From an uncultured Gammaproteobacteria bacterium (GTDB lineage Bacteria > Pseudomonadota > Gammaproteobacteria > Steroidobacterales > Rariloculaceae): a stretch of DNA of 53,184 bases. The notes below the pieces were generated by a model. It was not told the origin of the DNA and did not search any database. It saw only the letters and a list, made by a program, of their open reading frames with translations. The stretch is taken from the NCBI GenBank assembly GCA_964388365.1, contig CAYMAF010000002.1, forward strand, positions 1 through 53,184, given 5' to 3'. Made by a program: the position numbers and the translations under genes. Of this stretch, positions 4,042 through 50,161 are shown piece by piece. Every line of letters begins with the position of its first letter. Position 1 is the first letter of the stretch.

Positions 4042-4237
4042 GCCGTTGCTCCGTGCGCTCGCCCTTTTGAACATCGTCGAAGATAGTCTAGCGCGTGAGG
4101 CCGCCTCGGTCGCTACCCACAACTTTCAACGAATGAGCGCGCGACGGCGCCGTTGCCACATTTCGCCAGAACATCGGCCGCGGATCGCCATTCGAGACGA
4201 CGAGACTATCGGCACCTCCAGCTCGAAGGGTTTGAGC

Positions 4238-5716
4238 ATGGGTGAACGTCTCGATCGAGCTCGCGGGAGCGTCACGCTCAAGATCCTGCTCATCGGCTTC
4301 CTAGCGCTGCTGCTGCTGATACCGGCGAAGATGATCGAAGGTCTGATCGGCGAGCGCGGCGCACGCGCCGCCGCGGCGCGAGCGGAGGTCGGCAACTTCT
4401 GGGGTAACGCCCAGACGGCCGGCGGTCCGATGCTCGCGCTGCCTTTTCGGTATACGGAGACGGTCGGCGGCGAGCCGACTCGCATCGGCGATGTGCTGCT
4501 CGTGCTGCCCGAGCGGCTGACGATCGACGGTCGGCTCGAGATCGAGACGCGGCGGCGCAGTATCTACGAGGTGCCAGTCTATACGGCGAAGCTCGACATC
4601 GCCGGTGACCTGCGACCGCCGGATCTCGCCGACCTTACGGATACGTTTCCGGACATCGAGTTTCTTTGGAACGACGCGACGATCGTCCTGCCGCTGTCCG
4701 ACCCGCGCGCGCTCTCCGAGCCCGTACGAATTCGACTCGCGGATGCGGAGGCCGAGCTCGAGGCCGCGAGCGGCCCGCGCTGCGTCGGGAGCGCACCGAC
4801 ACCGGGCGCGCTGCCAGCCGTTGCCGGGACGCCCCCATTTCGCTCCGCCGCAAGCCCGCTGAACGCGCTCGCCGCGGCGGCGCCGGCTCGGGTCTGCATC
4901 TCGGGAAGCCGGCTCACGGCCCGATACGCGGCCCTCGGTCTCGAGCCGCTCGACGCGGCGCAGCGCTTCTCGATGCAGCTCACGATTCGCGGCACCGGCC
5001 GGCTCCATTTCCTTCCGCTCGGCGACGTGACGGACGTGAATCTCGTATCGTCGTGGCGATCGCCGAGCTTCAACGGATCGTTCGCGCCGATCCAGCGTAC
5101 CGTCACGGACGACGGTTTCACCGCCGCCTGGCGCGTGCTCGCTTTCGGCCGCGGCTATCCGTCGAGCGGGCTGCGATCCGAGGGCTACGAGCAGATGTTC
5201 GCGGTATCGTCGTTCGGCGTCGACCTTCTGCCGCCGCTCGGCGTGCACCAGGCGAGCCTGCGCGCGGTGAAATACGCGATCCTCTTCGTCGGCTTGACGT
5301 TCCTCGTCTATTTTCTCTGCGAAGTCTTTGCGGGCCTCAGGCTGCACGCGCTGCAATATCTCTCGGTCGGAGTCGCGAACTCGCTGTTCTTTCTGCTGCT
5401 CCTCGCGCTCGCCGAGCATATCGGCTTCGAGCTCGCCTACGTCGCGAGCGCGCTCGGGTCGATACTACTGATCACCGCGTACAGCGCGGCGGCCCTCGGG
5501 ACCGGGCGGCGCGCGCTCTATGTCGCGGGCCTGCTTTCGCTCGTCTATGCGTATCTCTACATCGCGGTCAGAGCCGAGGACTACGCGCTGCTGATCGGCG
5601 CACTCGGCCTGTTCGCAGCGGTCGCGGCGTTCATGATGCTCACTCGAAGAGTCGACTGGTTCGCGCTGAGCTTCGAGGCGCAGCGGGACGGCTCTCCATA
5701 CGATCGGACCTCGTAA
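4238..5716 (+). CDS. creD: Cell-envelope integrity inner-membrane protein CreD
   Basis: Start at ATG 4238 (MGERLDRARGSVTLKILLIGFLALLLLIP). The C-terminal membrane block KYAILFVGLTFLVYFLCEVF...LQYLSVGVANSLFFLLLLALAEHIGF closely parallels E. coli CreD. Confidence 0.8.
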   Translation: MGERLDRARGSVTLKILLIGFLALLLLIPAKMIEGLIGERGARAAAARAEVGNFWGNAQTAGGPMLALPFRYTETVGGEPTRIGDVLLVLPERLTIDGRLEIETRRRSIYEVPVYTAKLDIAGDLRPPDLADLTDTFPDIEFLWNDATIVLPLSDPRALSEPVRIRLADAEAELEAASGPRCVGSAPTPGALPAVAGTPPFRSAASPLNALAAAAPARVCISGSRLTARYAALGLEPLDAAQRFSMQLTIRGTGRLHFLPLGDVTDVNLVSSWRSPSFNGSFAPIQRTVTDDGFTAAWRVLAFGRGYPSSGLRSEGYEQMFAVSSFGVDLLPPLGVHQASLRAVKYAILFVGLTFLVYFLCEVFAGLRLHALQYLSVGVANSLFFLLLLALAEHIGFELAYVASALGSILLITAYSAAALGTGRRALYVAGLLSLVYAYLYIAVRAEDYALLIGALGLFAAVAAFMMLTRRVDWFALSFEAQRDGSPYDRTS

Positions 5717-5866: not shown

Positions 5867-6622
5867 TCAGAGGTCGGCCGCCGGCTTACGAGCGGACAGC
5901 GCGAAATACGACTGCGAGCGCATACCGCTCCCGAAACGGCCTGCCGTGTAGAGCACCGACGCGAAGATGCGGTTCATGAAGCCGAGGAACTCGGGGTTGA
6001 ACCGCGCGGTCATGAAATCGACACGCACGTCGGTAAACCCCGCTGCAAGCAGCTCTTCGGTGACCTTTTCCGGATCGAGATATACCTCGTCGTCGGAATA
6101 GATCTTGATCATCTTGCGGATGAGCTCTCGATCCCGGAGAAAGCGCATGACGCCCCGGTACCACGCCCGATCGTTGGGCTCGAAGCAGAAAAAGCAGCCG
6201 CCCGGTCTCAGCACGCGAAACGCGCCGGCGAGCGCCTTCTTCATGTCCGGAAGATGGTGCAGTCCAGAAAAGAGCAGCACGACGTCGAATTCCTCGTCTC
6301 CGAAGGGAAGATCCTGGGCATCACCGTACACGGCCCTGACGTGCGGCAATCGGTTCTGCAGCGCGGCGAGCAGAGTACGAGAAAGATCGACGCCGGTATA
6401 CGAGCGATATCGTTTCGGAATCTTCCGAGCGAACGCGCCCCCTCCGATGCACAGCTCGAGAACGTCGCCGTCGAGCTTCGGAATGCACGCTATCGCTCGA
6501 TCCTTCGTCTCGTCCGAAGACCAATCGTAATCTTCGTACGTTTCCCAGTAAGACTGCTCTATGGCAAGAGCTCGATCGTCGGTCGAGCCCTGGGCGGGGC
6601 TATTGCTGGCTACATCACTCAC
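5867..6622 (-). CDS. Class I SAM-dependent methyltransferase (Methyltransf_11/UbiE-like)
   Basis: GTG start at 6622-6620 overlaps the upstream TGA (GTGA, 6619-6622). Motif I VLELCIGGGAFA, post-I TGVDLS, motif II/III FDVVLLFSGLHHLPD...LRPGGCFFCFEP. The long 5' extension in the ORF track overlaps the upstream gene and is not credible. Confidence 0.8.
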   Translation of the reverse strand: MSDVASNSPAQGSTDDRALAIEQSYWETYEDYDWSSDETKDRAIACIPKLDGDVLELCIGGGAFARKIPKRYRSYTGVDLSRTLLAALQNRLPHVRAVYGDAQDLPFGDEEFDVVLLFSGLHHLPDMKKALAGAFRVLRPGGCFFCFEPNDRAWYRGVMRFLRDRELIRKMIKIYSDDEVYLDPEKVTEELLAAGFTDVRVDFMTARFNPEFLGFMNRIFASVLYTAGRFGSGMRSQSYFALSARKPAADL

Positions 6623-7971
6623 GAGACTGCTCCTCGACCGCCTTTTCCTATCGAGTTCAACCAGGATCTCAGCTGACGCATTCGACCCAGCGTCCTCCAG
6701 TAGATATCTTCCATCAGGATATGCGCGAACTCTGCGTTCCGGCCCGCGCAGTACAAGCCCTCGATCGGCAGCCCTTTCTCGAGCTCCCGGCGCTCCGCCT
6801 CGTACTCGTTCAAATACACGGGATAGCCGACCGGAGTCTTGACCACGCGGCACCCCTCGAAGCGTTGCCGTGCGGAGGGGAACATCGCCTCCAGATGATC
6901 GAGACAAAGCTCCCCGATCGCTTCCTCGTCCATCTGATAGTACTCGCTGTCGGTCTCGCAACCGATGTCCACATTGACGGTCGTCATGCCGTCCGGCGCG
7001 AGCCACGGCACCGATTGCGGAACCTCGGTGAGCCGAAAGAACGGATGTTCCTTCCCGGGAACCCATGTCGTGACGGCGGGAAGGAACGGGCGGCCGCGAA
7101 AAATCAATGTGGCGAGCACCATCGGCCGGTACCTGAAACGCTCGAGATGCTCGAGAGCGTCCGAGCCCTCGACGAGCCGCGGCAATATGTGCACCGGCGC
7201 GGTGCTTATCGCCGCTGCGACTTCCTGTTCTCGACCGTTGACGCGTATCGCGCGCACCCGATTACTCTCGACGAGGATCGACTCCACTCGCGTCTCCAGC
7301 ACGATCTGGTCTTCCATCCCCGCTGCGAGACTTTGACACAGCTCTACCATGCCTCCCCGCGGATAGACGTGCCAGACATGCGGACTTTCGGCCTTCTCCC
7401 GGGAGAATCCGTTCGCCACCGCACGGCCGCTCGCGCGACCCGAGATCTTCAGCGTGAGGACGTTCAGCACGCCTCTATCGACATGCGGCGGGATGACCGC
7501 CGGAGAAAGCTCGTCTGCGGAAACGCCGGACCATTTCTCGAGCAGCGGGATGGCGACGTCCTCCGCCATCCGATTCCCGTAGGTCACACGATAGCTTTCC
7601 GCCGCCGACGTTACGTTGGTCTTGCCGAGCGAACGGAGCCGTGCGGCCATTGCGCTCGCGACGAGCCGCGGAGACCGCAGCAGGCCGAACGGAAAGCCGT
7701 ATACCTTTCCGTTAAGATAGACCGCCTCGTCATAGTGCGTGACCGTATAGCACCTCTCCGACACCCCTAGCGCCGTCGCGAGACGATTGGTAATGAGATG
7801 GGCGCCGAAGTCGTACTTCACGCCGCGCTTATCCGTGAAGGACTGCGCCATGCCGGCGATCGCTTTGCCCGCTTCGTACACCTGTACTGCGTAGCCCCTT
7901 CGGTGCAAATCATTGGCAGCCGTCAGCCCGGCGATGCCCGCACCCAAAACCGCAACAGGCGGGATATTCAT
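6619..7971 (-). CDS. NAD(P)/FAD-dependent oxidoreductase (amine-oxidase / phytoene-desaturase / protoporphyrinogen-oxidase-like fold)
   Basis: N-terminal dinucleotide fold VAVLGAGIAGLTAANDLHRRGYAVQVYEAGKAIAGMA followed by YDFGAHLI. 450 aa. Confidence 0.8.
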   Translation of the reverse strand: MNIPPVAVLGAGIAGLTAANDLHRRGYAVQVYEAGKAIAGMAQSFTDKRGVKYDFGAHLITNRLATALGVSERCYTVTHYDEAVYLNGKVYGFPFGLLRSPRLVASAMAARLRSLGKTNVTSAAESYRVTYGNRMAEDVAIPLLEKWSGVSADELSPAVIPPHVDRGVLNVLTLKISGRASGRAVANGFSREKAESPHVWHVYPRGGMVELCQSLAAGMEDQIVLETRVESILVESNRVRAIRVNGREQEVAAAISTAPVHILPRLVEGSDALEHLERFRYRPMVLATLIFRGRPFLPAVTTWVPGKEHPFFRLTEVPQSVPWLAPDGMTTVNVDIGCETDSEYYQMDEEAIGELCLDHLEAMFPSARQRFEGCRVVKTPVGYPVYLNEYEAERRELEKGLPIEGLYCAGRNAEFAHILMEDIYWRTLGRMRQLRSWLNSIGKGGRGAVS

Positions 7972-7984
7972 TTCTTGAACGCCT

Positions 7985-8800
7985 TTAGTTCTTTTCCAGT
8001 CGGGCGACGAGGATGGCCCCCTTGCCGCGCGCCGCGGCGACGGCCTCGATCAGGTAGGCCACGGCCGCGGGAACGACCCAGCCGCCCGTCATCAGCTTCG
8101 TCGTGAGCTTCGACGCCCTCCAATCGGCCAGCCAGTTTCGAACCGACTGCAGCCAAGCCTCGGGAGCCGAAACCGTTCGGCTTCCGGTCACTTTGAAGCC
8201 CGCTTGCTCGGCGAGCCTTTCGATTCCGCGAATGGAAAAGTGCTGACGCGATCCGGGGAAGCGATATGCGAACCAATGCCTGCCGCCGAACACTTCGAAG
8301 CAGCTCGAGCGGACGTTTCCGACGACGACATCCACGGTGCCATCGTCTTTGAGCATCCTCCTTAGGCGCTGCAACAATTGCGCAGGCGACGAGGACGATT
8401 CCAACGCGAGCGGCAACAATATGTGATCGAAGCACTGCCCCTCCGGGCATCGTGCAAGCAGCTCGGCTTCGTCGGTCGGTGCGAGCATAAAATGATAGCC
8501 CGCCGAAACCTCGAGCTTCTGGCGATCGATAACCCGCTCGAAGACGGCCACCGCGTCTCGCGTGGCGTCGGCCGAGCCCTGACCCTTCTCGTAAGGCGGA
8601 GCCAGGTAAACCGTGCCGCAATCTTCGCACTGCATGACGACCGCAGCGGCGAGGGAACCGCCGAAGGCTCCTGTCACGCCCAAAGTTTCACCGCCGTCTG
8701 AGCCGCACACCGGGCACAGCATCATGAGCGTTGCCGCGTGCTCTTGCCCATCAGCGGCCTCAGGCCCCATCGATCCAGCCGTCGACGCCATATCAGCCAT
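7985..8800 (-). CDS. Methyltransferase-like protein with an N-terminal CxxC...CxxC zinc-ribbon; motif I apparently degenerate
   Basis: CPVCGSDGG...CEDCGTVY ribbon. The C-terminal half matches the class I MTase pattern (FDHILLPLALESSSSPAQLLQRLRRMLKDDGTVDVVVGN), but I cannot find a GxGxG motif. The start overlaps the upstream gene stop by 8 nt (8793-8800). Confidence 0.55.
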   Translation of the reverse strand: MADMASTAGSMGPEAADGQEHAATLMMLCPVCGSDGGETLGVTGAFGGSLAAAVVMQCEDCGTVYLAPPYEKGQGSADATRDAVAVFERVIDRQKLEVSAGYHFMLAPTDEAELLARCPEGQCFDHILLPLALESSSSPAQLLQRLRRMLKDDGTVDVVVGNVRSSCFEVFGGRHWFAYRFPGSRQHFSIRGIERLAEQAGFKVTGSRTVSAPEAWLQSVRNWLADWRASKLTTKLMTGGWVVPAAVAYLIEAVAAARGKGAILVARLEKN

Positions 8801-9845
8801 GAAATTTGCCCTTAATGAAAAGGCCGCTACCGGCCAACATGACCGGTATGATGAGAAAAGCCGTGTACACGACCGACGCTGCGACCGCCGTCGCTGCCGG
8901 TGTGCCGTCCAGCCCGAAGCCCATGACGAACGCTACCTGGGTCGTGCCGATCTGCATCGGTGAGTTCGGGATCGACAACCCCAGAACGAGAAGCAAGAGC
9001 GTCACCATTGCACCGGACAGCGTCACAGTCGATCCAACCGCGAGCCCGCTGAACCATATCGCGGCGACGATGAATACCCATTGAGCGACGGAGCCGACGA
9101 CAACGAGCACCATGAGGCGCCGGCTTCCGAACACGGACATTCCGGCTCGCACGCGCTCGAGTTGCTCGCTCAGCCGTCGACGAAGCTTCTCGGGAAGCCG
9201 ATCGAGCAACCGCCCGCTGGCCTGCGCGAGCCAGCGAGGCGTCCGAAGCATGAGGTACAGCACCGCGACGGCGGCGACGAGCGCTGCCGATACGACCGCA
9301 GCCGCGGCATAGACGATTTCCGGCAGATTCGTCGCGACCGCCGCATAGCCTGCGAGCAAGGCGAGCAGGGCCAAGAAGTCCAACATTCGCTCGACGAATA
9401 TCGTGCTGATCACGGTCCCGAAGGGCACCGCGCACCGCCTCGTGATCCAAGTTGCGCGTATGGCCTCCCCCACGTGGGCGATGAGGAAATTGACGGCCAA
9501 GCCCACGTAAACGGCGGAATGAAGGTGACGAAACGTTGCGCTCGGCACCATAAGTAATAGCCGCCATCGCCACGCTTTGAGAATCACGAAAGCCGCGGTC
9601 GCGCCTAGGATCGCCGCTCCGAACAGGTAGTTCGCGGAGCCCATCGCCGACACGAGCGAAGGCATGTCGACCTTGGTCAGGGCCGCATACAACAGAATCG
9701 CTCCGATTGCGATTCCGAGCGCGCTCCAGACGAAGGCCTTCGAGCGATCGAGCGAAGGCTGCGCCCCGGCGCGCGTCACCGCGCTGCGATCATCCTCGGC
9801 CCCGATCCCGGGCATTGGACGCGGCTTTGCCGGGCTGTCCATCAT
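8793..9845 (-). CDS. Polytopic membrane protein of the UPF0104 / lysyl-phosphatidylglycerol-synthase-TM (MprF flippase-like) family
   Basis: Start moved to ATG 9845 (MMDSPAKPRP...), which forms an ATGA overlap with the upstream stop (9842-9845). Multiple hydrophobic helices and the KAWRWRLLL segment typical of this family. Confidence 0.65.
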   Translation of the reverse strand: MMDSPAKPRPMPGIGAEDDRSAVTRAGAQPSLDRSKAFVWSALGIAIGAILLYAALTKVDMPSLVSAMGSANYLFGAAILGATAAFVILKAWRWRLLLMVPSATFRHLHSAVYVGLAVNFLIAHVGEAIRATWITRRCAVPFGTVISTIFVERMLDFLALLALLAGYAAVATNLPEIVYAAAAVVSAALVAAVAVLYLMLRTPRWLAQASGRLLDRLPEKLRRRLSEQLERVRAGMSVFGSRRLMVLVVVGSVAQWVFIVAAIWFSGLAVGSTVTLSGAMVTLLLLVLGLSIPNSPMQIGTTQVAFVMGFGLDGTPAATAVAASVVYTAFLIIPVMLAGSGLFIKGKFHG

Positions 9846-10789
9846 CGCCGTGCCTCTGACGGAGCAAGCGAAAGCTCCGCGGTGATGGGATAGTGATCGG
9901 AACCAATGGCCGGCAGCACTCGAAAATCCTCCGCGACGAACGAGCGGGTGTGCAGAACATGATCGATCGGCGCCCCGAGCAGGGGTATCGACGGCCACGT
10001 CGGCGCGATACTGTACCCCTTGCGCGCATTCTCGAGTTTCGCAGTCGTCACGAAATCGCGGTAGTGCGGGCTCCACATTGAAAGATTGAAGTCCCCGAAT
10101 ACCACCGCATCGTGCGGGGACTCTGCGATATGAGCCGAGATGGCGCGCAACTGTTCATCTCTGCGCTTCGCGAGGTCGGCTGTCATCGGGGGATAAGGGT
10201 GCACGAGCAGAAGCTCGACGGCTCGTGCGCCCCACTGCAGCGTGGCGGCGATCGCCGACGGCTCGTCGCCTGCAAAATGAATCTTTCGCGCATTTCCGAG
10301 AGGCATCTTGCTCAGCAGCGCCATCCCCCAAAAGCCTTCCTCGGGAGCTTCGAAACGATATGGATATTCGCCGGCGACATGCTCCAGCCGCGCGAGAAAG
10401 GAAGGCGAGAGCTCTATGAGACCGACGATATCCGGTTGCTCCTTGCGTATCAGCGCTTCGAGGCGTGTAGGGTCGGAGATCCACGGCGAAACATTGGACG
10501 CGACGATCTTGAGCGTCGGAGCCCCTTCGGCGCTGTTCCCGCGATGCGAAGGCACGTACCAGGGGACGACGGATGCGGAGCCGACCGCGAGCCCGATCGC
10601 CGACGCGGCGAGCCAGGCCCGCTCGCGCGCAATCAGAAACACGACGCAGCAAATGAGCAGCGCCGGCACGAAATGAGGGCGGAAGCTCGACAGGTTGTCC
10701 AGAACGTAATGCCATCTACCGTTCAAAGACAGCAGCAGGCTTCCGGCCAGCATTAGCGTGACGAGCTTCGTGATACGGATCAGCCACAT
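9842..10789 (-). CDS. Membrane-anchored endonuclease/exonuclease/phosphatase (EEP) family phosphoesterase
   Basis: N-terminal TM helices (MWLIRITKLVTLMLAGSLLLSL..., PALLICCVVFLIA). EEP motifs IVGLIELS, VVFGDFNLS and C-terminal GSDHYPITAEL. The start is uncertain: ATG 10789 is chosen, and ATG 11026 is also in frame. Confidence 0.7.
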   Translation of the reverse strand: MWLIRITKLVTLMLAGSLLLSLNGRWHYVLDNLSSFRPHFVPALLICCVVFLIARERAWLAASAIGLAVGSASVVPWYVPSHRGNSAEGAPTLKIVASNVSPWISDPTRLEALIRKEQPDIVGLIELSPSFLARLEHVAGEYPYRFEAPEEGFWGMALLSKMPLGNARKIHFAGDEPSAIAATLQWGARAVELLLVHPYPPMTADLAKRRDEQLRAISAHIAESPHDAVVFGDFNLSMWSPHYRDFVTTAKLENARKGYSIAPTWPSIPLLGAPIDHVLHTRSFVAEDFRVLPAIGSDHYPITAELSLAPSEARR

Positions 10790-11223
10790 CTCGTATATGC
10801 TCTGATGCAGAGCCTTCACTCGAAGCCGTTCGACTCGCCCTCGCGCGGTTATGTCAACGGGCCCGCGCTTCGGGTCGTCCCAGATGAGGTTCGTCAGCGT
10901 TTCGAGAAGCGCACATAAGGGCCCGCGCCTCGTCAGCGATGTCGACACCTGGCTCCGGGAAAGGCCGCGATATCGTTCTAGGTTCGAATTCTTCCGGTCG
11001 TTGGCCCGCCGTCGATCTACGAGCATAGCGCTACGGGCGGGGACGCGGCCACTCGAGCGAGCCCGGCGACGCTCCAAGGCCTCGGTGTGGCATGCGGCCG
11101 GGAAAGCCAGGCTGCGGCGAGGGAGCGGACCGCGGCACCCGCCGGCACGCGAGGATCGGCGTTGAAATCGGACCCGCGCTGGAAGATGATCGCACCGTTT
11201 CGGCTCGAGTGCGAGGCAATCCG

Positions 11224-11625
11224 ATGAACGCGAAGCTCCTGATGATGACGAGCAGCGCGATCCTGGCCGTCGGCGGCCTCACCGCGCTGTTCGCGCCTCA
11301 CGAGCTCGCGGCGGCGCTGGGTGCGCCGATCGCCGGATCGGGCGTACCGATCCAGCTCCTCGGGAGCGCATACTTCGCGTCGGCGATCGCGAACTGGACC
11401 GGGAAGGACAAGCCGATCGGCGGCATCTATTCGAGGCCGCTATCGCTCGGCAATTTCGTGCACTTCTCGATCGGCGCGCTCGTCCTACTGAACGGCGCGG
11501 TGGACGGCAGCGCTTCCGCCGCGCTCGTGACCGCCTGCGCGGTCTATGCCGCTCTCGCGGCGGCATTCGCGCGGTTGGCGTTCGGCGGAAGCGCCGCGGC
11601 CGCCGGGGCCGGCGCGGACCGGTAA
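11224..11625 (+). CDS. Small hydrophobic (about 4 TM) protein, function unknown
   Basis: Start at ATG 11224 (MNAKLLMMTSSAILAVGGLTALFAP). Coding-like GC3. No family recognised. Confidence 0.45.
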   Translation: MNAKLLMMTSSAILAVGGLTALFAPHELAAALGAPIAGSGVPIQLLGSAYFASAIANWTGKDKPIGGIYSRPLSLGNFVHFSIGALVLLNGAVDGSASAALVTACAVYAALAAAFARLAFGGSAAAAGAGADR

Positions 11626-13916: not shown

Positions 13917-14065
13917 CGATCCGCGGTTGCCGCGACGGCGCCCGTCACATGTTGCCGAGGCGCCGTCGTCCGGCACGACCGTCGACCTCGTGGGAGCGCG
14001 AACGACTGTGGTTCAGCAAGGCGCCGGGCGGCCCGAAGCCTTTAAGCCCACGTTCGCGACGCCGG

Positions 14066-14559
14066 CTACGGACGGCCGGCGGCCTTCCTGCAATGCAAGA
14101 AGATTCCGTGCGCGCCCGACGCGATGCCGCGGTTGAGGTCGCGCCACGCCCAATCCCGCACGGATACGATCTCGCCCCTCGGCTCGAATAGCCGCAGATA
14201 GTCCTCGAACCGGTTGTCGTGCACGACGCGACCGGGCCCGCCCTTGCGGCCGCTGAAGTCGGTCGTGATCTCGAGGACAAACACGGGGCAGTGGCTCGCT
14301 CGATACCGATCGCGGAGGCGTCGACCGCCGTCACCGTCAATCCGAGGTCGCTCAATAGGCGCGCTTGAAGGCCCATTCCGCAGCCGATCTCGAGCACGTG
14401 GTGCCCACGCTTCCAGCCGGCGGTCGGCACGACCCACTTCTTCAGTTTCCGCCGTTCCTCGCGCAGCGAGTACTCCCAGCCGCCGTCCGCGTAGAACCGG
14501 TCGTAGTGACCTCGCTTCTTCGGTTCGTCCGTCGATTGCCGATCCATCACCACGTTCAT
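14066..14559 (-). pseudogene. Frameshifted (and probably internally shortened) class I SAM-dependent methyltransferase
   Basis: The frame of ORF 13945..14625 gives a good N-terminal part (MNVVMDRQ...HHVLEIGCGMGLQARLLSDLGLTVTAVDASAIGIERA) and then degenerates to Ser/Arg junk. The frame of ORF 14066..14656 becomes protein-like from about 14297 (SHCPVFVLEITTDFSGRKGGPGRVVHDNRFEDYLRLFEPRGEIVSV...). The switch point lies near 14290-14300. Confidence 0.5.
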
Positions 14560-14864
14560 GCTCCTGATATCGATCCGACTCGAACCGAACGCCGCGAGAC
14601 CGAAGATGCCGACAGCATGCGACATACAACATCTCTGCTACGCGGCTTTCCCGCACCGAGATATAGGATCGGCTGCGACGATGTCTGCATCGCTGCGCGC
14701 GGCTCGACCGGGGCTCTCGTCGCTCGCGAGGGCCCGGGGTTGCCTCGAGCGGCGAAATCGTTCAGGGTTCGCCCCCTGCGGATCCTACGCATCGCATCGA
14801 TCCTCGTCACGATGGCTCGACACGGAGGAAGACCAGTGCCGCCACGGCCGGCGCGCCCGTCGCA

Positions 14865-37591: not shown

Positions 37592-39163
37592 TCAGAAGGC
37601 GTTATAGGCGCGCTCTCGATTCTTCGCCTTCAGACGCATCCCATCTTCCGGCAATAGCCAACGCTGGGCGACGAGCCGCTCGATTTCAGCCTCATACAGC
37701 TTGATGTAGCGCTCGGGTGTGCCGTAGCGACGGACGAGTTCCTCGGTCGGGAGCGCCTCACGAACGAAAAACACGCTGGGATAAAGGTTATCGGCCTTGC
37801 ATCCCGGCCGGTCGTCGCGCGTATACCGGCCGTATCTCGCCAACGGCACCTCGTACTCCGCGGCCCTGATACCGCCGATCGCATTCCCGACGCTGTCGCG
37901 GACGAGGCCGTTCGCGTTGCGCTCGATGGGCAGCCCTCGAGGCGGCGTGATGCCGTGAAGGACCCAGTTCCGCAGATTCTCCACGGCGGCTCGGACGAAA
38001 GCCGCCTGGGGAATGTCGCTAGGCGGAAGATCGCATTCGAATATCGACACCGTCGACACGTCGGTGAACTGATACCCCTTATCCCGCAGCTGCACCTCAT
38101 GAGGCAGATCCAGCCACGAAAGGGTCGGATCGACCAGGTTGTCCGTGTGGACGACACCGGCGAGCTCGTAAACGCGGTGGCCGCCAATCGACTCGTCGCT
38201 GTCGGGCTCGTTCGGCGAGGTCAACGCGTTGCCCAGCTCGACTTCGCTTTCCGTCAGGAACTCGATGACGCGAGCATCCGTTTTCTTGAGGATCCTTCGA
38301 GGATCGTCGAGCGGCACGAACGGCTCGTCATTGTAGAGCGGGAGGTAGCCCGGATCGTTATGAGCCGATGAGACGCCGATCAGGTATCCATCGAATACCG
38401 GCCGTCCATCGGGCAGACGAATACGCTCGTGAAAACCTTCGTTGATGTACGTGCGCTGTATGCTCCCCGTGTACGACCAGCCGCCGATCAGCATCGCCGT
38501 CACCGTGAGGTCTTTGAGAGGGTTATCGGCGTCGTTGCTGCGTAGCTTCTTGCCGATATCCCCCATGACTTCGAAGCGAATACCTTCCTCCTCGGGCCAG
38601 CTAATCTCGGCGTAGCGCTCAGGATTGAACCACTTGAGAATGCGGTTGTGACCGATCGGCCCCGAAGGCTCCGGGAAGCTCGGGCTACCGGACCAGCCTT
38701 TCGATGCGTCCCCGACCCCGGCGAACACGTAGATGTCCCCGCGCGCCATGATGTAGTTGCTGAGCACCTGCCAGTGACCATTCCACCCATGGGTCGGGTG
38801 AACGGGCTCGAAGTGCACCACGCCGCTGAACTTCGCGGGATCGGCTGGCCGACGAATCACGATCCGCGTCGTATAAGGCAGCTTGTCCGTCCGCGCCTTG
38901 AGACCGTTGGTCGTGCGCTCGTAGGCGGCAGCCCGGCCGTCGACGAAGTACTCTTCCTCGACATAACCGAACTCGGCGAGGTTCACGCCCAAGTTCGCGC
39001 CGCGATAATCGGCAGGGCCGTACATCGGGTTATCCGCATCGAAGGGCACCGGCCCCCTGACGGCGGAAACCTGCGCGGCGGACGGCACGGCCGTTGCGAG
39101 CATCCCCGCCGCCACCAGAGCGCCCGAAACTCCGCACTTTCTTAGGAAGGCATTGTTGCGCAT
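37592..39163 (-). CDS. Secreted protein with an alpha/beta-hydrolase-domain (Abhydrolase_10-like) appearance; function unknown
   Basis: Signal peptide MRNNAFLRKCGVSGALVAAGMLATAVPSAAQ. EEEYFVDGRAAAY...YTTRIVIRRPADPAKFSGVVHFEP resembles the opening of that family from memory. Lies 51 nt downstream of a TonB receptor gene on the same strand. Confidence 0.5.
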   Translation of the reverse strand: MRNNAFLRKCGVSGALVAAGMLATAVPSAAQVSAVRGPVPFDADNPMYGPADYRGANLGVNLAEFGYVEEEYFVDGRAAAYERTTNGLKARTDKLPYTTRIVIRRPADPAKFSGVVHFEPVHPTHGWNGHWQVLSNYIMARGDIYVFAGVGDASKGWSGSPSFPEPSGPIGHNRILKWFNPERYAEISWPEEEGIRFEVMGDIGKKLRSNDADNPLKDLTVTAMLIGGWSYTGSIQRTYINEGFHERIRLPDGRPVFDGYLIGVSSAHNDPGYLPLYNDEPFVPLDDPRRILKKTDARVIEFLTESEVELGNALTSPNEPDSDESIGGHRVYELAGVVHTDNLVDPTLSWLDLPHEVQLRDKGYQFTDVSTVSIFECDLPPSDIPQAAFVRAAVENLRNWVLHGITPPRGLPIERNANGLVRDSVGNAIGGIRAAEYEVPLARYGRYTRDDRPGCKADNLYPSVFFVREALPTEELVRRYGTPERYIKLYEAEIERLVAQRWLLPEDGMRLKAKNRERAYNAF

Positions 39164-39214
39164 CGAAATCCTCTTCTATTCAAAGCGTTTTCGAAAGATT
39201 CGAAGAACGGAATC

Positions 39215-41542
39215 TCAGTACCGATAGGTTGCGTTGATACCAAAGGTCCTCGGTCTGGGCGCCTGGGCTCTGAACAGGACGGAATAGGGCGCTGCACGGA
39301 AGTGCTGCAGATTCGCCTTATCCAAGGCGTTGTCTACGAACAGGTTGACATCCACGCCGGAGCGGCGGATGCCGACGCGCAAGTCGAGGTTGTCCATCGA
39401 CTGAATGGGATCGTTCAATGGATCGAAGCCGAAGTCCGTCGGCAAACCTCGAGGTGCGGCATCGGTGTGCTGGTAATCCGCTCTCGCGTAGCCGTCCATG
39501 CTCGGCGAGAACGTGAAGTCATACTGCACGGATAGCGTAAAGGTTCGCGGAATCGTGGGAAGCTTCGAACCTTTCGTTCGCACGACCACCGGCGGCACCG
39601 AGTAGATCGTGTCGTCGAAGTACACCTTGTTGTAGCCGAACGACGAGCTGATCGTCAGACCATCGATGATTTGGGCGTTGAGCGCGACGTCGAAGCCTTT
39701 CGACGTGACTGAACCCAGATTGACGATGAAGGCGCTGCCGCACGACGGGAGAATGATTCGCTGCTGAATGTCGCTCCAGTCGATGACGAATACGCTCGAG
39801 TCGATGCTGATCGAGCGGCCGAACCTCTTCTTCGCGCCCACCTCGTAGGACCAGAGGCTGTCGGACTTGTACGTGGTAGGCGTTTCGGTGAGCCCGAGCT
39901 CGTCGAGATCCGGCACGCAGCGGATCGAGTTCTCCTTGGGCTGCGAGCCGCCCACTCTGAATCCTTTCGCGGCCGACGCGTAAAAGAGGAGGCTCGGATC
40001 GGCCTGATAGGAGATCCCGAGCTTCGGCGTGATTGGGTCCTCCTTTTGATTCACGTGCGTGAGGTCCTCCCCGCCGTTCAACGGGCCATCACCGTAAATA
40101 TCGGCCTTGAATGTGGTTCTCGACGCCCGCAAGCCCGCCGTCAGCTTGAGCTTCTCCGTAAGGTGGATATCCGCTTGCGCGAAAACGGCGGTCTGCTCGT
40201 CGACGGAATTGGTGATGCCCCGATAGAACACGTCGCCGGGCAGAAGCTCGGCCCCGAAGATGTCGACCAGCCCGAAAGCGCCGTCGGTGGCCTGCCGGAT
40301 CAGCTGATCGGTGTAGGGCGAGATGATGTCTTGGTACGACCGCTGCTTCGAGCGAAGGTAGAATGCACCGACCAGCCAGTCCACGCGATCTCCCGTGTAC
40401 TGCAGCCGGAACTCCTGCGTGAACGCCTTCTGGGTGTCTTCGTGAACGGCGCTTTCGTACTGACCGTCGATGGTGATGTACGGAACGAGCGTGCTGTTGA
40501 GCTCGGCGGACTGATACGTGTAGTCGAACATCTGATCCAGCTCGTGCTCGAAGTATGACGTGTTCGAGACGAACTGAAAGCGTCCGAGGTCGACCTCCGT
40601 CAGCAGGCTCGAAAGCAGAAACCAGTCCTTCGAAGGCAGCGGAAGCTGGTTCGGCGTGTTGTAGTCTCGCGAGTCTGGATCCGACGTGATCGTGAATATC
40701 TGCGCGATATCGTCAGCCTCGTTCTCCTGATAATAGATCGACGGAAGAATCGAAACCGCCGGGCCCGGCTCCCACAGGAAGTCCACTTTGAACGCCTGGG
40801 AATCCTGCTGGTTGATGTTCTTTTGAATCTTGGTCGGGTCGTATCCGCTCTCGACCAGCGGCCCGACCCGATCGACCCACCCGCCGTCGTGCCGATACCA
40901 GCCGCTCACGCGCATGCCGAGCTTGTTCTCGATGAGGGGAAGTCCCAGCGCGGCGCCGGCCTCGTAGTTCGCGCTTCCGCCCTCGATGCTCGACAGCTCG
41001 GTCCTTCCGTAGACTTGCATCTCGTTCAGATCCGGACGGGGCGTAATGAATCGTACCGCGCCGCCTTGGGCGCCTGCACCGAAGAGCGTACCTTGCGGTC
41101 CGCGAAGCACCTCGACGCGCTCGAGATCGAAGATCAATGGATAGGCCGCGGCGGCGGTCACTCCGATCATCCGGACTTGGACCGGAGTATCGTTGATGTA
41201 GACGCCGGTCGTGGCCGCACCGATCGTCGAGCTGATTCCGCGTATGGCCATATTGGTTTGATGACCGTTGCCGCCCGCCGATCGAGCGAAGGTAAGCCCG
41301 GGCGATATTCGGGCGATGTCGTCGACGCGGCGAACGTGCAGGGCGTCCAGAGAGTCCTGGTCGTAAGCGGAAATGCTGATCGGGACTCGGCTGATCGTTT
41401 CAGTTTGCCTTGTCGCGGTAACGACGATCTCCTCCACAGGGGGAGCAGCGCTGTCCGCCTGGGACAGCGCGGTGTTGGAAACGGGCAAAGCGGCGCCGAC
41501 GAGCAGTAGCCGAACGTACGTCGAGACGTTATAGGTGTTCAT
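39215..41542 (-). CDS. TonB-dependent outer-membrane receptor (no STN extension)
   Basis: Start chosen at ATG 41542 (MNTYNVSTYVRLLLVGAALPVSNTALSQA), preceded by GAGGAAGG. Plug EEIVVTATRQTETISRVPISISAY. C-terminal ...FGINATYRY aromatic terminus. Confidence 0.85.
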   Translation of the reverse strand: MNTYNVSTYVRLLLVGAALPVSNTALSQADSAAPPVEEIVVTATRQTETISRVPISISAYDQDSLDALHVRRVDDIARISPGLTFARSAGGNGHQTNMAIRGISSTIGAATTGVYINDTPVQVRMIGVTAAAAYPLIFDLERVEVLRGPQGTLFGAGAQGGAVRFITPRPDLNEMQVYGRTELSSIEGGSANYEAGAALGLPLIENKLGMRVSGWYRHDGGWVDRVGPLVESGYDPTKIQKNINQQDSQAFKVDFLWEPGPAVSILPSIYYQENEADDIAQIFTITSDPDSRDYNTPNQLPLPSKDWFLLSSLLTEVDLGRFQFVSNTSYFEHELDQMFDYTYQSAELNSTLVPYITIDGQYESAVHEDTQKAFTQEFRLQYTGDRVDWLVGAFYLRSKQRSYQDIISPYTDQLIRQATDGAFGLVDIFGAELLPGDVFYRGITNSVDEQTAVFAQADIHLTEKLKLTAGLRASRTTFKADIYGDGPLNGGEDLTHVNQKEDPITPKLGISYQADPSLLFYASAAKGFRVGGSQPKENSIRCVPDLDELGLTETPTTYKSDSLWSYEVGAKKRFGRSISIDSSVFVIDWSDIQQRIILPSCGSAFIVNLGSVTSKGFDVALNAQIIDGLTISSSFGYNKVYFDDTIYSVPPVVVRTKGSKLPTIPRTFTLSVQYDFTFSPSMDGYARADYQHTDAAPRGLPTDFGFDPLNDPIQSMDNLDLRVGIRRSGVDVNLFVDNALDKANLQHFRAAPYSVLFRAQAPRPRTFGINATYRY

Positions 41543-41764
41543 GTTTAATGATGCCTTCCTCTGAGCATCGTTCATGCGATGCTTGCAAGGTACCGTGCGC
41601 GTAAACGGCCGCAAGGTGTGTTGTGGACAGCGGCCATGCATAAGCGGACAGTCGCCGTTTGCGGAGGAGGATCGTTCATCGTTGCGCGAAACGCCGAAGC
41701 CTTTCGAACTGCGTAATGAGTGGTTTAGGCTTTGCCCGGCATCTCTTTTCCGCCGCCCGACGAC

Positions 41765-43228
41765 ATGATCGAAAATGACCCGGCCATCGTCGCCGCCCTT
41801 GTCGCCTACATGGCGATTTGCCTGCTGCTCGGTTTCATTGCGTACCGCCGCACGCGCACGCTAGGCGATTTCATTCTCGGCGGGCGCAAGCTCGGAAGCT
41901 GGGTCACGGCGCTGTCGGCCCAGGCGTCCGACATGAGCGGATGGCTGCTGATGGGCCTGCCCGGGCTCGCCTATCTTGCGGGTCTCGACGCCGCGTGGCT
42001 CGCGCTCGGGCTCGCGATCGGCACGTGGGCGAACTGGCGCTTCGTCGCGGCGAGACTTCGCACGAGAACCGAGCGCCTTGCAGATTCACTGACGCTGCCC
42101 GACTACTTCGAGCGCCGCTTCGTCGACCGCACGCGCGTGCTGCGCACGTTCACCGCGGTGTTCATCCTGATCTTCTTTGCGTTCTACACGAGCTCGGGGT
42201 TCGTCGCCGCGGGCAGGTTGTTCGAGACGCTGTTCGGCTTGCCGTACGTCGAAGCGATATTCTGGGGCTCGATCGTGATGCTCGCGTATACGTTCTTCGG
42301 CGGCTTTCTCGCCGTGAGCTGGTCCGACGTGCTGCAGGGCACACTCATGTTCGTCGCACTCGTGCTGGTTGCTGCGCTCGGAATCGAGCTCGCGGGCGGC
42401 CCGGAATCCGCCGTCGATGCGATCTCCGCACGGGATCCGAGCCTGCTCGATCCGTTCGTCGGCACCGGCGGCGAGGCGCTCGGGTTCATCGGCGTCGTAT
42501 CGCTCCTCGGCTGGGGCCTCGGGTATCCGGGCCAGCCGCACATCCTCGCGCGCTTCATGGCGATACGCGACGCCACGGAGCTCGTGACGTCGCGCCGCGT
42601 CGCAATGGCATGGGTCGTCACCGTGCTCGCCGCGGCCGTGATCGTCGGGCTCGTCGGCGTGGTCGCGCTCGATCCGCCGCTCGAGGGCGCGAGCAGCGAA
42701 ACGGTCTTCATCCGCCTCGCGACCGAGCTCTTCCCTCCGGCGGTCGCCGGCGTGTGCCTGGCCGGCATCCTCGCGGCGATCATGAGCACGGCGTCGGCGC
42801 AGCTTCTCGTGTCCTCGTCCGCGTTCGCGCAGGACTTCTACCGCGGGTTCTTTCGCCCGAACGCCGGCCGGGCGGAGCTGCTCTGGGCCGGCAGGCTCGC
42901 AGTGCTCGCGATCGCGATTGCCGCGTTCGTGCTCGGGCTCGATCCCGAGAGCCGAGTCCTGTCTCTCGTCGCGTGGGCGTGGGCCGGCTTCGGCGCCGCT
43001 TTCGGCCCGGCGATTCTGTTGTCGCTTTATTGGGAGCGGATGACGCGCAACGGCGCGCTCGCCGGTATCGTCGCCGGCGGCCTGACCGTGATCGTCTGGC
43101 CGCAGCTCGAGGGCACGCTGTTCGAGCTTTACGAGCTCGTGCCGGGATTCGTGCTCGCGACCGCGGCGATCGTCGTCGTTTCATTAGTCGAGTCGCGGAG
43201 CGCAAAGCGGGTCGTAGAAGGCGTGTAG
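41765..43228 (+). CDS. putP: Sodium/proline symporter (SSF family)
   Basis: Start at ATG 41765 (MIENDPAIVAALVAYMAICLLLGFIAYRRT). GGRKLGSWVTALSAQASDMSGWLLMGLPG is the PutP signature region. Confidence 0.85.
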   Translation: MIENDPAIVAALVAYMAICLLLGFIAYRRTRTLGDFILGGRKLGSWVTALSAQASDMSGWLLMGLPGLAYLAGLDAAWLALGLAIGTWANWRFVAARLRTRTERLADSLTLPDYFERRFVDRTRVLRTFTAVFILIFFAFYTSSGFVAAGRLFETLFGLPYVEAIFWGSIVMLAYTFFGGFLAVSWSDVLQGTLMFVALVLVAALGIELAGGPESAVDAISARDPSLLDPFVGTGGEALGFIGVVSLLGWGLGYPGQPHILARFMAIRDATELVTSRRVAMAWVVTVLAAAVIVGLVGVVALDPPLEGASSETVFIRLATELFPPAVAGVCLAGILAAIMSTASAQLLVSSSAFAQDFYRGFFRPNAGRAELLWAGRLAVLAIAIAAFVLGLDPESRVLSLVAWAWAGFGAAFGPAILLSLYWERMTRNGALAGIVAGGLTVIVWPQLEGTLFELYELVPGFVLATAAIVVVSLVESRSAKRVVEGV

Positions 43229-43283: not shown

Positions 43284-43934
43284 TCACGGCCTGCGGCCGA
43301 CGTACCACCGAACACCGAGCGTCATCTCTCTCGTCGGCTTTCGCGGCAGATGGTACTGACGCACTTCTCCGATCAGCGCCCAGGTCGGTGCGAATGAGTA
43401 CTCCGCGCCTAAGCCGAGCAGCCAATCGCGGCCATCGATACGCGCTCGGTCGATTCGCGTTTCCTCGTTCTCGGTGGCGTAGGCGGCTTCCCAATCGAAT
43501 ACGCCGACTCGCGCGAGAAGCTCCACGCGCTCGAGAAGCGGTTGGCGATAGAGCCCGGAGACGACATAGCCGTCGCCGGAGCTCGGATGCACGTATGCGA
43601 GTCCCTCGGCCAGCTGGGGCGCGTCGAACGAGACCTTCACCTCACCCAGATCGAGATAGCCGGCTTCGACGGCCCATCGCTTCGAGACTGCATAGCCCGC
43701 TGCGATCTCGAACGTCGCGCGTTCCTCATCGACGGCCGTGACGGTCGCATTGATGCCCCGTGCCGCGAAATCGGATTCCAGATCGAACCGGCTGATGCCC
43801 GTATCCGCGAACCCGAGCCGCGCTGCAACATACAGCGAGCCGCGATCGAAACCGCGGTCGGCATACGCGATCGGATGCGCAAAGGCCATGACCGCCGCAA
43901 GGGCTGCGCACGCCGCACGCGAGACGCGGCGCAC
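43284..43934 (-). other. Signal-peptide-like segment plus 8-strand OmpA/OmpX-like beta-barrel module. It is either the true C-terminus of the giant protein or a separate 216-aa OMP starting at the in-frame GTG 43934
   Basis: VRRVSRAACAALAAVMAFAHPIAYA / DRG... is followed by eight amphipathic alternating strands: SLYVAARLGFA, TFEIAAGYAV, WAVEAGYLDLG, GYVVSGLYRQP, VELLARVGVFDW, DWLLGLGAEYSF, WALIGEVRQYH, MTLGVRWYV. Confidence 0.55.
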
Positions 43935-49868: not shown

Positions 49869-50161
49869 CTTCACAATAGAACCGTTGAATGATTTATCGG
49901 AGCCGACCGTTTTTCTGGGTGGGCACACGAGCTTTATAGGAAAGCGGTGCACGCATGTCGTCGATCGGAGTCGCAGTTCGCAGCTTTGTAAGGAGTCGAG
50001 CGCGAGCGACGACACGAACCGAGAAGATCGAATGACTCGTGCGCGAGGAAAGAAGAAGACTGGTTGGTACAATCGAAGCCGACGGTAGCGGCATCGGGCG
50101 AGGCGTCGAAAACTTTCCTACCCAACGACGTGGATAGCAAAGCACGTCGAATCGCGGGATC

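Follow-up and report, generated by a model that had tools for sequence, protein, structure and literature searches.

Several described bacterial systems couple the tailoring of a lipid-linked sugar or of a lipid head group to a flippase, among them the Arn pathway (ArnBCADTEF), which places 4-amino-4-deoxy-L-arabinose (L-Ara4N) on lipid A, the Gtr systems, and the gpgSDF and hexSDF operons. Here we describe five genes, g1 to g5 (numbered in the order of transcription, all on the minus strand), at positions 5867-10789 of a contig from an uncultured gammaproteobacterium of the family Rariloculaceae, order Steroidobacterales (GenBank assembly GCA_964388365.1, contig CAYMAF010000002.1, positions 1 to 53,184 of the forward strand; this whole stretch of 53,184 nucleotides is hereafter called the window). 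We interpret these genes, with a probability of about 0.45, as a reduced accessory module of an Arn-like periplasmic glycosylation pathway of the "three-component" type; any specific chemistry that might be assigned to them is very doubtful. The kind of system, with a flippase and the tailoring of a lipid-linked sugar or head group, is known from Arn, Gtr, and gpgSDF/hexSDF; the tailoring enzymes are new, and the unit consisting of a pseudo-methyltransferase (g3) and a flavoprotein (g4) has no described counterpart. The features of the locus are the following.

g1, 9842-10789, minus strand: membrane-anchored EEP phosphoesterase, 315 amino acids, ATG start
g2, 8793-9845, minus strand: stand-alone membrane protein of the MprF-flippase type (PplT/UPF0104) with eight transmembrane segments, 350 amino acids
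g3, 7985-8800, minus strand: zinc-ribbon methyltransferase-like protein that has lost the S-adenosylmethionine (SAM) motifs I-III, 271 amino acids
g4, 6619-7971, minus strand: flavin adenine dinucleotide (FAD) flavoprotein of the protoporphyrinogen oxidase (PPO)/UDP-galactopyranose mutase (UGM) branch of the amine-oxidase fold, 450 amino acids
g5, 5867-6622, minus strand: canonical class I SAM methyltransferase, 251 amino acids, GTG start
10790-11223, no strand: divergent intergenic region of 434 bp upstream of g1, the sole place for an operon promoter

Relationship to described systems

The GtrABC and undecaprenyl-phosphate-pentofuranose systems consist of a polyprenyl-phosphate sugar synthase, a flippase, and a GT-C glycosyltransferase, and in such three-component systems auxiliary cytoplasmic enzymes remodel the lipid-linked sugar before export (PMC11127046). 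Compared with this layout, the window contains a candidate dedicated flippase, g2, and neither a GT2 nor a GT-C gene. The auxiliary enzymes differ as well, being SDR epimerases or DprE1/E2 in the described systems and a PPO/UGM-like flavoprotein, a (pseudo)methyltransferase, and a methyltransferase here, as do the flippases (GtrA, MATE, or SMR there, UPF0104 here), and the described systems have no periplasmic EEP.

Relatives of the locus resemble the Arn pathway in encoding a DegT aminotransferase, a GT2 that matches ArnC, an SDR similar to UXS and to the C-terminal domain of ArnA, a Polysacc_deac_1 protein (ArnD type), a flippase step, and a PMT_2/DUF2142 protein of the GT-C type (as ArnT). 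Unlike the Arn system, the window holds accessory genes only, and its flippase is of the MprF type, not ArnE/F. The Arn system has no counterpart of g3, g4, g5, the EEP, or the flavin reductase that the relatives encode, and the NCBIfam scores of the relatives' proteins are far below the Arn equivalog cutoffs.

In the gpgSDF operon of P. aeruginosa, responsible for glucosaminyl-phosphatidylglycerol (GlcN-PG), and in hexSDF of C. difficile, a stand-alone UPF0104 "flippase" is encoded together with head-group tailoring enzymes (PMC12713373; bioRxiv 10.1101/2022.03.11.483950). Its partners are a GT4 or GT2 and a deacetylase that act on phosphatidylglycerol (PG) or diradylglycerol, and unlike the locus analyzed here, these operons include no flavoprotein, methyltransferase, or EEP. 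Lipid translocation has been demonstrated only for MprF and is inferred for the stand-alone UPF0104 members (PMC12713373; bioRxiv 10.1101/2022.03.11.483950); for GpgF, the flippase activity itself was not demonstrated. The ybhP-clsB-ybhN operon of E. coli also combines an EEP with a UPF0104 membrane protein, but a PLD-type cardiolipin synthase gene lies between them, whereas g1 and g2 overlap directly, and YbhP lacks the transmembrane anchor of g1. Orthology to this operon was rejected given the BLASTP E-values (0.018 and 0.019) and the different architecture. Full-text literature searching found no paper on the g1-g5 gene set, and for the g3, g4, and g1 subfamilies we found neither a solved structure nor a curated functional model.

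Conservation of the gene set

A scan of one genome per GTDB species yielded 47 loci, against which the five proteins were run by tblastn; the conclusions on gene neighborhoods are drawn from the tblastn tables and from public gene calls with Pfam assignments. Taxonomically, the loci belong to Gammaproteobacteria (Steroidobacteraceae, Woeseiaceae, and unclassified metagenome-assembled genomes, MAGs), Gemmatimonadales, Planctomycetota (Gemmataceae, Pirellulaceae, and the cultured Lacipirellula limnantheis I41), Myxococcota, and a MAG labeled Alcaligenaceae. In all 47, g3 is directly followed by g4. Moreover, five proteins (P0240, P0081, P0094, P0100, and P0101) are fusions of a methyltransferase-like with an amine-oxidase domain, both domain orders being represented; in P0240 the g3 part is degenerate, and a g5 homolog comes next. 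The universal adjacency and the domain fusions argue that g3 and g4 form one physical unit.

The other genes are distributed more narrowly. A g5 gene directly follows g4 only in the gammaproteobacterial clade, in two Logan metagenome lineages, and in one Gemmatimonadota MAG, and the full order g1-g2-g3-g4-g5 is found in about ten Steroidobacterales-type gammaproteobacterial loci (L008-L013, L015, L016, and L067). Judging from this distribution, the set appears to be nested at three levels, with the g3-g4 core being the oldest, g5 added in one subclade, and the full set assembled around the core in a single clade. In the closest relative, a Woeseiaceae MAG with a g4 81% identical to that of the window, the C-terminus of g2 lies just upstream of g3 at the contig edge.

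All block-carrying gammaproteobacterial relatives (L008-L016 and L067) encode an NADH:flavin reductase of the HpaC/StyB type between g1 and g2 (for example, L015:8331-8894 and L067:1485-2069). In the window this gene is gone and g1 overlaps g2 by ATGA at 9842-9845; such an overlap indicates that the reductase gene was cleanly deleted. The preliminary description of this DNA, made from the sequence alone, had proposed to test whether the five genes co-occur across genera. The genes do recur together elsewhere; the complete set, however, is confined to one gammaproteobacterial clade, where it comprises six genes including the flavin reductase.

Arn-like gene context in relatives

Among the relatives, one with a g4 75% identical to that of the window is the most informative; its 12.6-kb contig carries a single co-directional array: Hexapep acetyltransferase, DegT aminotransferase, UDP-GlcNAc 2-epimerase (Epimerase_2), GFO_IDH_MocA oxidoreductase, Polysacc_deac_1, EEP, flavin reductase, LPG_synthase_TM, g3, g4, g5, and DUF2142/PMT_2 (GT-C). 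A GT2 gene lies within 3-8 kb of the block in nine of the nine gammaproteobacterial relatives L008-L016. In 14 loci, GT2, SDR, and PRK07233 genes form a triad within 10 kb; the GT2 finds its best NCBIfam matches in ArnC, PpgS, AglJ, and dolichyl-phosphate hexose transferase, and the SDR best matches UXS and the C-terminal domain of ArnA. Beyond the Gammaproteobacteria, a GT87 or PMT_2 gene of the GT-C type directly follows g4 in about ten planctomycete and gemmatimonadete loci, and in L060 an EEP homolog (41% identity) follows a Polysacc_deac_1 gene in an amino-sugar cluster that has GtrA in place of g2.

These neighbors support the earlier suggestion of lipid or polyprenyl head-group tailoring combined with translocation. 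The lack of a glycosyltransferase partner, which had also been pointed out, is true of the window itself, but given the GT2 genes of the relatives it appears to be a peculiarity of the reduced window locus.

The member of the triad assigned to PRK07233 is an amine-oxidase-fold flavoprotein paralogous to g4 (L015:18921-20369, with equivalents in 14 loci; L055:4069-5406) and a true PRK07233 protein (446 bits). It recurs with the ArnC-like GT2, the UXS/ArnA-like SDR, and WbpB/D/E/I-like amino-sugar genes, and the PRK07233-GT2-SDR triad, which spans Gammaproteobacteria, Gemmatimonadota, and Acidimicrobiia, is an uncharacterized conserved triad in its own right. In the metagenomic relative L006, an Alginate_exp gene for an AlgE-like outer-membrane porin (L006:3006-4412) starts 2 nt past the g5 homolog on the same strand, a putative further link to an exported anionic glycan. 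A mobile set of four genes is found, depending on the relative, after g5 or after a second EEP copy (L015:12915-16767, also L010:3535-7314); it encodes a 222-amino-acid protein with no Pfam match, a 462-amino-acid protein with weak matrixin-like similarity, a He_PIG Ig-domain protein, and a sulfatase/phosphodiesterase-like protein.

Domain identities of the five proteins

Pfam and NCBIfam scans of the five proteins returned generic family matches, none above an equivalog cutoff. Neither profile libraries nor papers assign the genes to a characterized pathway, which supports the view in the preliminary description that no pathway could be named for them, and profile annotation upheld most of its domain calls: an EEP with a membrane anchor (g1), a UPF0104/LPG-synthase-TM protein (g2), a Cys-ribbon methyltransferase-like protein with no GxGxG (g3), and a canonical class I methyltransferase (g5). 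The assignment of g4 to an amine-oxidase/phytoene-desaturase fold was right with regard to the amine-oxidase family, but the protein is nearer to the PPO/UGM branch than to the phytoene desaturases.

g1 matches Exo_endo_phos (PF03372) with E = 1e-26 and 94 bits, against a cutoff of 24.5. It has hydrophobic segments at residues 4-22 and 36-54 and a weaker one near 58-78, and its GDFN and SDH motifs (FGDFN and GSDHYP) align with the corresponding motifs of E. coli YbhP. The catalytic domain is predicted to be periplasmic by the positive-inside rule, given the short Arg-Glu-Arg loop between the second and third transmembrane segments. Homologs of g1 with 41-48% identity adjoin a Polysacc_deac_1 gene in amino-sugar clusters; those with 28-34% identity occur in unrelated gene contexts. 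g2 matches LPG_synthase_TM (PF03706; E = 7e-34, 118 bits, cutoff 33.4) and the "flippase-like" family TIGR00374 (59 bits, cutoff 43.2). A homolog of g2 precedes g3 in L008-L013, L015, L016, and L067, and a C-terminal fragment does so in L001. In a hydrophobicity scan, g1 showed two to three N-terminal transmembrane segments and g2 eight, with none in g3, g4, and g5. Searches of PDB sequences with g1, g2, and g5 gave generic superfamily matches only.

The flavoprotein g4

The most conserved gene of the set is g4, with products 45-81% identical to the window protein across phyla (tblastn) and at least 1495 homologs at E ≤ 1e-20. Annotated homologs are labeled "protoporphyrinogen oxidase" or "FAD-dependent oxidoreductase"; for homologs of the g3-g4 pair, this annotation is almost certainly wrong. 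In Pfam, g4 matches Amino_oxidase (E = 5e-26) and NAD_binding_8. Its NCBIfam matches are all far below cutoff, the best one being PRK07233 ("hypothetical protein"; 106 bits vs 252). An identity as the HemY protoporphyrinogen oxidase was rejected because the scores against the PPO equivalogs are far below the cutoffs (31 bits vs 517 for PRK11883.1-1 and 28 bits vs 560 for PRK11883.1-5), although the likeness of the fold is real; no heme-synthesis genes were seen among the annotated neighbors of the g4 loci. Also rejected were a phytoene-desaturase or carotenoid reading, the CrtI-family matches spanning only the dinucleotide-binding motif in the first ~55 residues, and a reading as HpnE (65 bits, cutoff 283).

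The model of g4 (pLDDT 87) is matched by Foldseek to the M. xanthus PPO (2ivd, TM-score 0.75) and to the eukaryote-type UGMs of T. cruzi (4dsg) and A. fumigatus (3ukp), with TM-scores of 0.76-0.78. In the profile alignment, the invariant DFGAH58 of the family pairs with the DLGGH His loop of the T. cruzi UGM, and the invariant W303...P310-F-F-R313 pairs with its W...PFYR segment, which we take to correspond to W315, Y317, and R327 of the A. fumigatus enzyme; variants mutated at these positions are among the Foldseek matches. PPO has neither the His loop motif nor the W...PFFR motif. H58, W303, and R313 are invariant in 37 sequences, and the family is rich in invariant Arg, Glu, Asp, and His residues. 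An hhalign comparison of g4 with E. coli Glf gave a probability of 79% over residues 6-221. Identity to the UGMs is only 16-18%, PPO is equal to UGM in its fold likeness to g4, and UGMs, unlike g4, have no methyltransferase partner.

By model and motifs, g4 appears to be a fold intermediate between PPO and UGM, and we read it as a probable flavoenzyme that binds a phospho- or diphospho-sugar and is either a reduced-flavin, mutase-like enzyme or an oxidase. The reduced-flavin dependence of UGM would fit the flavin reductase encoded in the relatives; this HpaC-type reductase, absent from the window, is the sole indirect hint of a pyranose-furanose mutase activity that uses reduced FAD.

g3, a degenerate zinc-ribbon methyltransferase

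A word-indexed search with g3 returned only ten proteins. In a full hidden Markov model (HMM) scan, the family numbered 68 representatives at E ≤ 1e-30; at E ≤ 1e-10 the count rose to 486, the family grading into ordinary zinc-ribbon Methyltransf_23 enzymes. Pfam aligns g3 with Methyltransf_23 (E = 1e-6) solely along the C-terminal half of the profile (positions 79-162 of 164). The alignment shows the C29, C32, C58, C61 ribbon and a strongly conserved C-terminal half with an FGGRHW motif, and the glycine-rich loop of motif I (E/DxGxGxG) was not found in g3 or in its ten closest homologs. By contrast, 27-31 more distant homologs carry a canonical motif I, [IV][LI]D[VIL]GCGDG. BLASTP alignment of g3 with an intact homolog is limited to residues 124-270, and the spacing between the ribbon and strand beta-4 is about 57 residues shorter in g3 than in the intact homolog.

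Structure prediction and fold search, which had been proposed as a check for a SAM pocket, lead in the same direction. In the AlphaFold model (pLDDT 84), the segment between helix 77-96 and strand 124-130 holds just a short strand and a short helix in place of the beta1-alphaA-beta2-alphaB-beta3 portion expected before beta4, and the core is not a complete seven-stranded Rossmann-like sheet. The best structural matches in the PDB are the zinc-ribbon sugar C-3 methyltransferases MtmC, KijD1, and TcaB9, which, like g3, have a Cys4 ribbon at the N-terminus and a class I fold after it; the TM-scores, however, are only 0.44-0.47, the identities 10-16%, and the SAM-binding strands are missing from g3. 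No match to Methyltransf_13/14 was obtained in Pfam for g3 or for the scanned fused homologs, the intact homolog from L026 having been scanned against NCBIfam only.

Thus, g3 appears to descend from a zinc-ribbon methyltransferase by the loss of ~57 residues that include SAM motifs I-III. With motif I and the model strands missing and the spacing shortened, it is very probably unable to bind SAM in the canonical manner, and it is a probable non-catalytic, structural partner of g4. The "double methylation" suggested in the preliminary description is unlikely, because the entire SAM-binding segment that the intact homologs retain is missing from g3.

g5 and the evolution of the g3-g4-g5 triad

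g5 matches Methyltransf_11 (PF08241; E = 2e-21, 77 bits, cutoff 21.2) and PF13649 (75 bits, cutoff 27), with LELCIGGG as motif I and no NCBIfam equivalog at or above cutoff. Among its PDB sequence matches is the phosphatidylethanolamine N-methyltransferase 8ys9 (36 bits). The tblastn homologs align from residue 1 of g5, which supports the GTG start, and the g5 start overlaps the g4 stop in the window as well as in L001, L003, L054, and L067.

In the neighbor-joining tree of g4, the loci with a degenerate g3 form a single clade that includes a g5-bearing branch and a Gemmatimonadales branch with no adjacent g5. Among the loci that lack motif I in g3, 13 have g5 and 4 do not; the raw Fisher test for loss of motif I against presence of g5 gives p = 3e-7, with L014 scored there as lacking g5 and with kinship ignored. 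The notion that g5 compensates for a dead g3, attractive as it is, is weakened because the association reduces to about one event each and there is a Gemmatimonadales subclade with neither motif I nor an adjacent g5. The replacement of a dead g3 by g5 is thus a weakly supported hypothesis.

Operon organization and flanking genes

Direct reading of the sequence agrees with the five minus-strand open reading frames (ORFs) and the junctions given in the preliminary description. In addition to the g1/g2 overlap, the sequence contains an 8-nt overlap of g2 and g3, ATGGCTGA, at 8793-8800, a 13-nt gap between g3 and g4 at 7972-7984, and a GTGA overlap of g4 and g5 at 6619-6622. In the public gene calls for four same-species contigs (L063-L066), products of 315, 350, 271, 450, and 251 amino acids are found again, and tight or overlapping g3/g4 and g4/g5 junctions are kept in the homologous loci.

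The unit comprises exactly five genes since it is bounded by a convergent CreD gene (4235-5716, plus strand) and a divergent ORF for a 133-amino-acid membrane protein (11224-11625, plus strand). The latter hydrophobic protein belongs to no Pfam family, and its divergent layout relative to g1 is kept in the same-species contigs. The wider flanks (Zn-ADH, GST, PAP2, SnoaL, and a BCCT transporter) are unrelated to g1-g5.

Spacing and conservation suggest that g1-g5 form one operon. Co-transcription is inferred rather than shown because consensus promoter and terminator scans gave matches no more often than in shuffled sequence. In the region 10790-11223, a consensus scan found no minus-strand sigma-70-like site and no gene is called, in the window or in the same-species contigs; the putative operon promoter is assigned to this region by position only. 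An Rfam scan of the window found nothing. The GC content at third codon positions (GC3) is 0.72-0.77 in g1-g5 (overall GC 0.60-0.63), compared with a median GC3 of 0.83 in the other 30 called genes of the window, which suggests a composition compatible with horizontal acquisition of the genes as a block.

Elsewhere in the window, the first ~117 residues of a minus-strand ORF (13945-14625) correspond to the part of class I methyltransferases that includes motif I (Methyltransf_23/25/11 matches), the remainder being Arg/Ser-rich and unmatched; the same-species public calls place only a 72-amino-acid gene there (L063), and the ORF is probably a frameshifted methyltransferase remnant. The window also contains a minus-strand ORF of 2263 amino acids (43284-50072) and, at 38000-42000, a region of reduced GC (0.60) with two large genes on the minus strand.

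Proposed function and alternative interpretations

As an accessory module of an Arn-like pathway, the five proteins might work in the following manner. On the cytoplasmic face, g4 would be joined to g3, its probable structural scaffold, in a fixed complex and would modify a phosphate-linked sugar, for which an undecaprenyl-phosphate-linked (amino)sugar is the most likely candidate; g5 would supply methyl transfer, and g2 would move the modified lipid-linked product to the periplasmic leaflet. In the periplasm, g1 would cleave a phosphoester, either in the recycling of the donor or carrier or in the preparation of the acceptor. Lipid A phosphatases precede GT-C modification, and the role of g1 would be analogous, with a different enzyme family involved. 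In the source genome, the pathway would run with no locally encoded GT2, GT-C, or flavin reductase.

Several observations weigh against this assignment. The 53-kb window contains no homolog of the GT2, SDR, PRK07233 paralog, GT-C, flavin reductase, or sugar-nucleotide genes, and therefore, a lipid-linked sugar would have to come from elsewhere, unless the module has another substrate. The g3-g4-g5 genes also occur with no membrane partners beside pyridoxal phosphate (PLP)-dependent decarboxylase or signaling genes (L001, L003, and L054). With regard to the sugar substrate, g4 has no match to Pfam GLF at E ≤ 0.01, Glf is not among the 25 NCBIfam matches listed, and by sequence profile the best full-length PDB match of the g4 family is PPO rather than UGM. 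Finally, the loss of motif I in g3 and the presence of g5 each map to about one evolutionary event.

A more far-reaching interpretation, which we consider tentative and on balance unlikely, is that g3-g4 represents a new, widespread class of two-subunit (sometimes fused) flavoenzymes, in which a zinc-ribbon methyltransferase or pseudo-methyltransferase is the obligate partner of a UGM/PPO-like FAD protein, and which transform a lipid- or nucleotide-linked amino sugar in a hitherto undescribed way. The chemistry might, for instance, combine methylation with an oxidation or a flavin-dependent contraction of the ring, and the product would be a novel methylated (perhaps furanosyl) decoration of surface glycan or lipid A in abundant soil Gemmatimonadota, Planctomycetota, and Steroidobacterales; in the lineage of the window, the catalytic methyltransferase subunit would have turned into a scaffold while a separate methyltransferase was recruited.

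Other explanations dispense with the lipid-linked sugar. Direct remodeling of phospholipid head groups with no polyprenyl carrier, in which g4 and g5 would oxidize and methylate a bulk membrane phospholipid such as phosphatidylethanolamine, PG, or an aminolipid, g2 would flip the product as has been proposed for MprF, GpgF, or HexF, and g1 would be a periplasmic EEP of the phospholipase-C or sphingomyelinase type, is unlikely. It draws on the isolated position of the window locus, with no glycosyltransferase and between unrelated genes, on stand-alone UPF0104 proteins that occur alongside enzymes for phospholipid or glycolipid head groups (gpgSDF and hexSDF; PMC12713373) or alongside ClsB (E. 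coli; bioRxiv 10.1101/2022.03.11.483950), and on the 36-bit match of g5 to 8ys9. However, all well-flanked relatives with a block that includes g1 and g2 have genes of the polyprenyl-phosphate-sugar type nearby (ArnC-like GT2, GT-C, and ArnD-like deacetylase), g4 carries UGM-like sugar-phosphate motifs, and the likeness of g5 to PmtA is that of class I enzymes in general. We regard as somewhat less likely again the division of the locus into two unrelated neighboring modules, namely, a membrane phosphoesterase with a flippase (g1-g2) and a soluble g3-g4-g5 unit for small-molecule tailoring, for instance, an MnmC-like FAD-dependent dealkylation of an amine followed by N-methylation of an amine or polyamine. 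A single unit is favored by the 8-nt overlap of g2 and g3 and by about ten loci in which the order g1-(flavin reductase)-g2-g3-g4-g5 does not vary; in favor of separate modules, the triad occurs without g1 or g2 in L003 and L054 and g4-g5 without g3 in L055. PLP-dependent decarboxylase genes also adjoin the triad in L001 and L003, but they are convergent rather than co-directional, and although the fusions of an FAD oxidoreductase with a methyltransferase recall MnmC, which is among the weak N-terminal NCBIfam matches, these matches span only the dinucleotide-binding motif (~37 residues).

The two remaining alternatives appear less probable still. It is very unlikely that the window copy is a decaying, non-functional leftover of a larger cluster: the flavin reductase, GT2, GT-C, and sugar-nucleotide genes are indeed absent from the window, the reductase of all block-carrying gammaproteobacterial relatives has gone from between g1 and g2, and GC3 is lower than in the neighboring genes, but all five ORFs are intact and tightly coupled, the missing genes could lie elsewhere in the genome, and the identical g3 protein is found on 99 contigs listed, with index matches in 148 blocks of the collection and the same five genes in the contigs read. 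The least probable of all is C-methylation of a lipid chain, in which a methyltransferase would add a methylene at a double bond (C=C) in an acyl or polyprenyl chain and the flavoprotein would reduce or rearrange the product, in the manner of BfaB/BfaA (tuberculostearic acid) or UfaM/UfaD. The pairing of an amine-oxidase-fold flavoprotein with methyltransferases, the NADH:flavin reductase of the relatives, and the PPO- and phytoene-desaturase-type folds, which are typical of enzymes with lipophilic substrates, would suit such a reaction. Nevertheless, neither g3 nor g5 matches CMAS (PF02353), consistent with the earlier decision to set the UfaM/UfaD furan-fatty-acid logic aside, g4, with its UGM-type motifs and its many invariant Arg, Glu, Asp, and His residues, suggests a polar anionic substrate, and the conserved neighbors are sugar genes, not fatty-acid or isoprenoid genes.

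Implications

More than 1400 close homologs of the g3-g4 pair, almost all of them metagenomic, stand under labels that are almost certainly wrong. The five-gene version in the window is a minimal configuration and a convenient construct for heterologous expression. If g3-g4 tailors lipid-linked sugars, the pair would add a new enzymatic step to periplasmic glycosylation of the Arn and Gtr types, correct a systematic mis-annotation, and show, in a clean natural case, how a methyltransferase decays into a non-catalytic partner; it would also be a sign that dominant soil phyla carry an as yet undescribed modification of the envelope.

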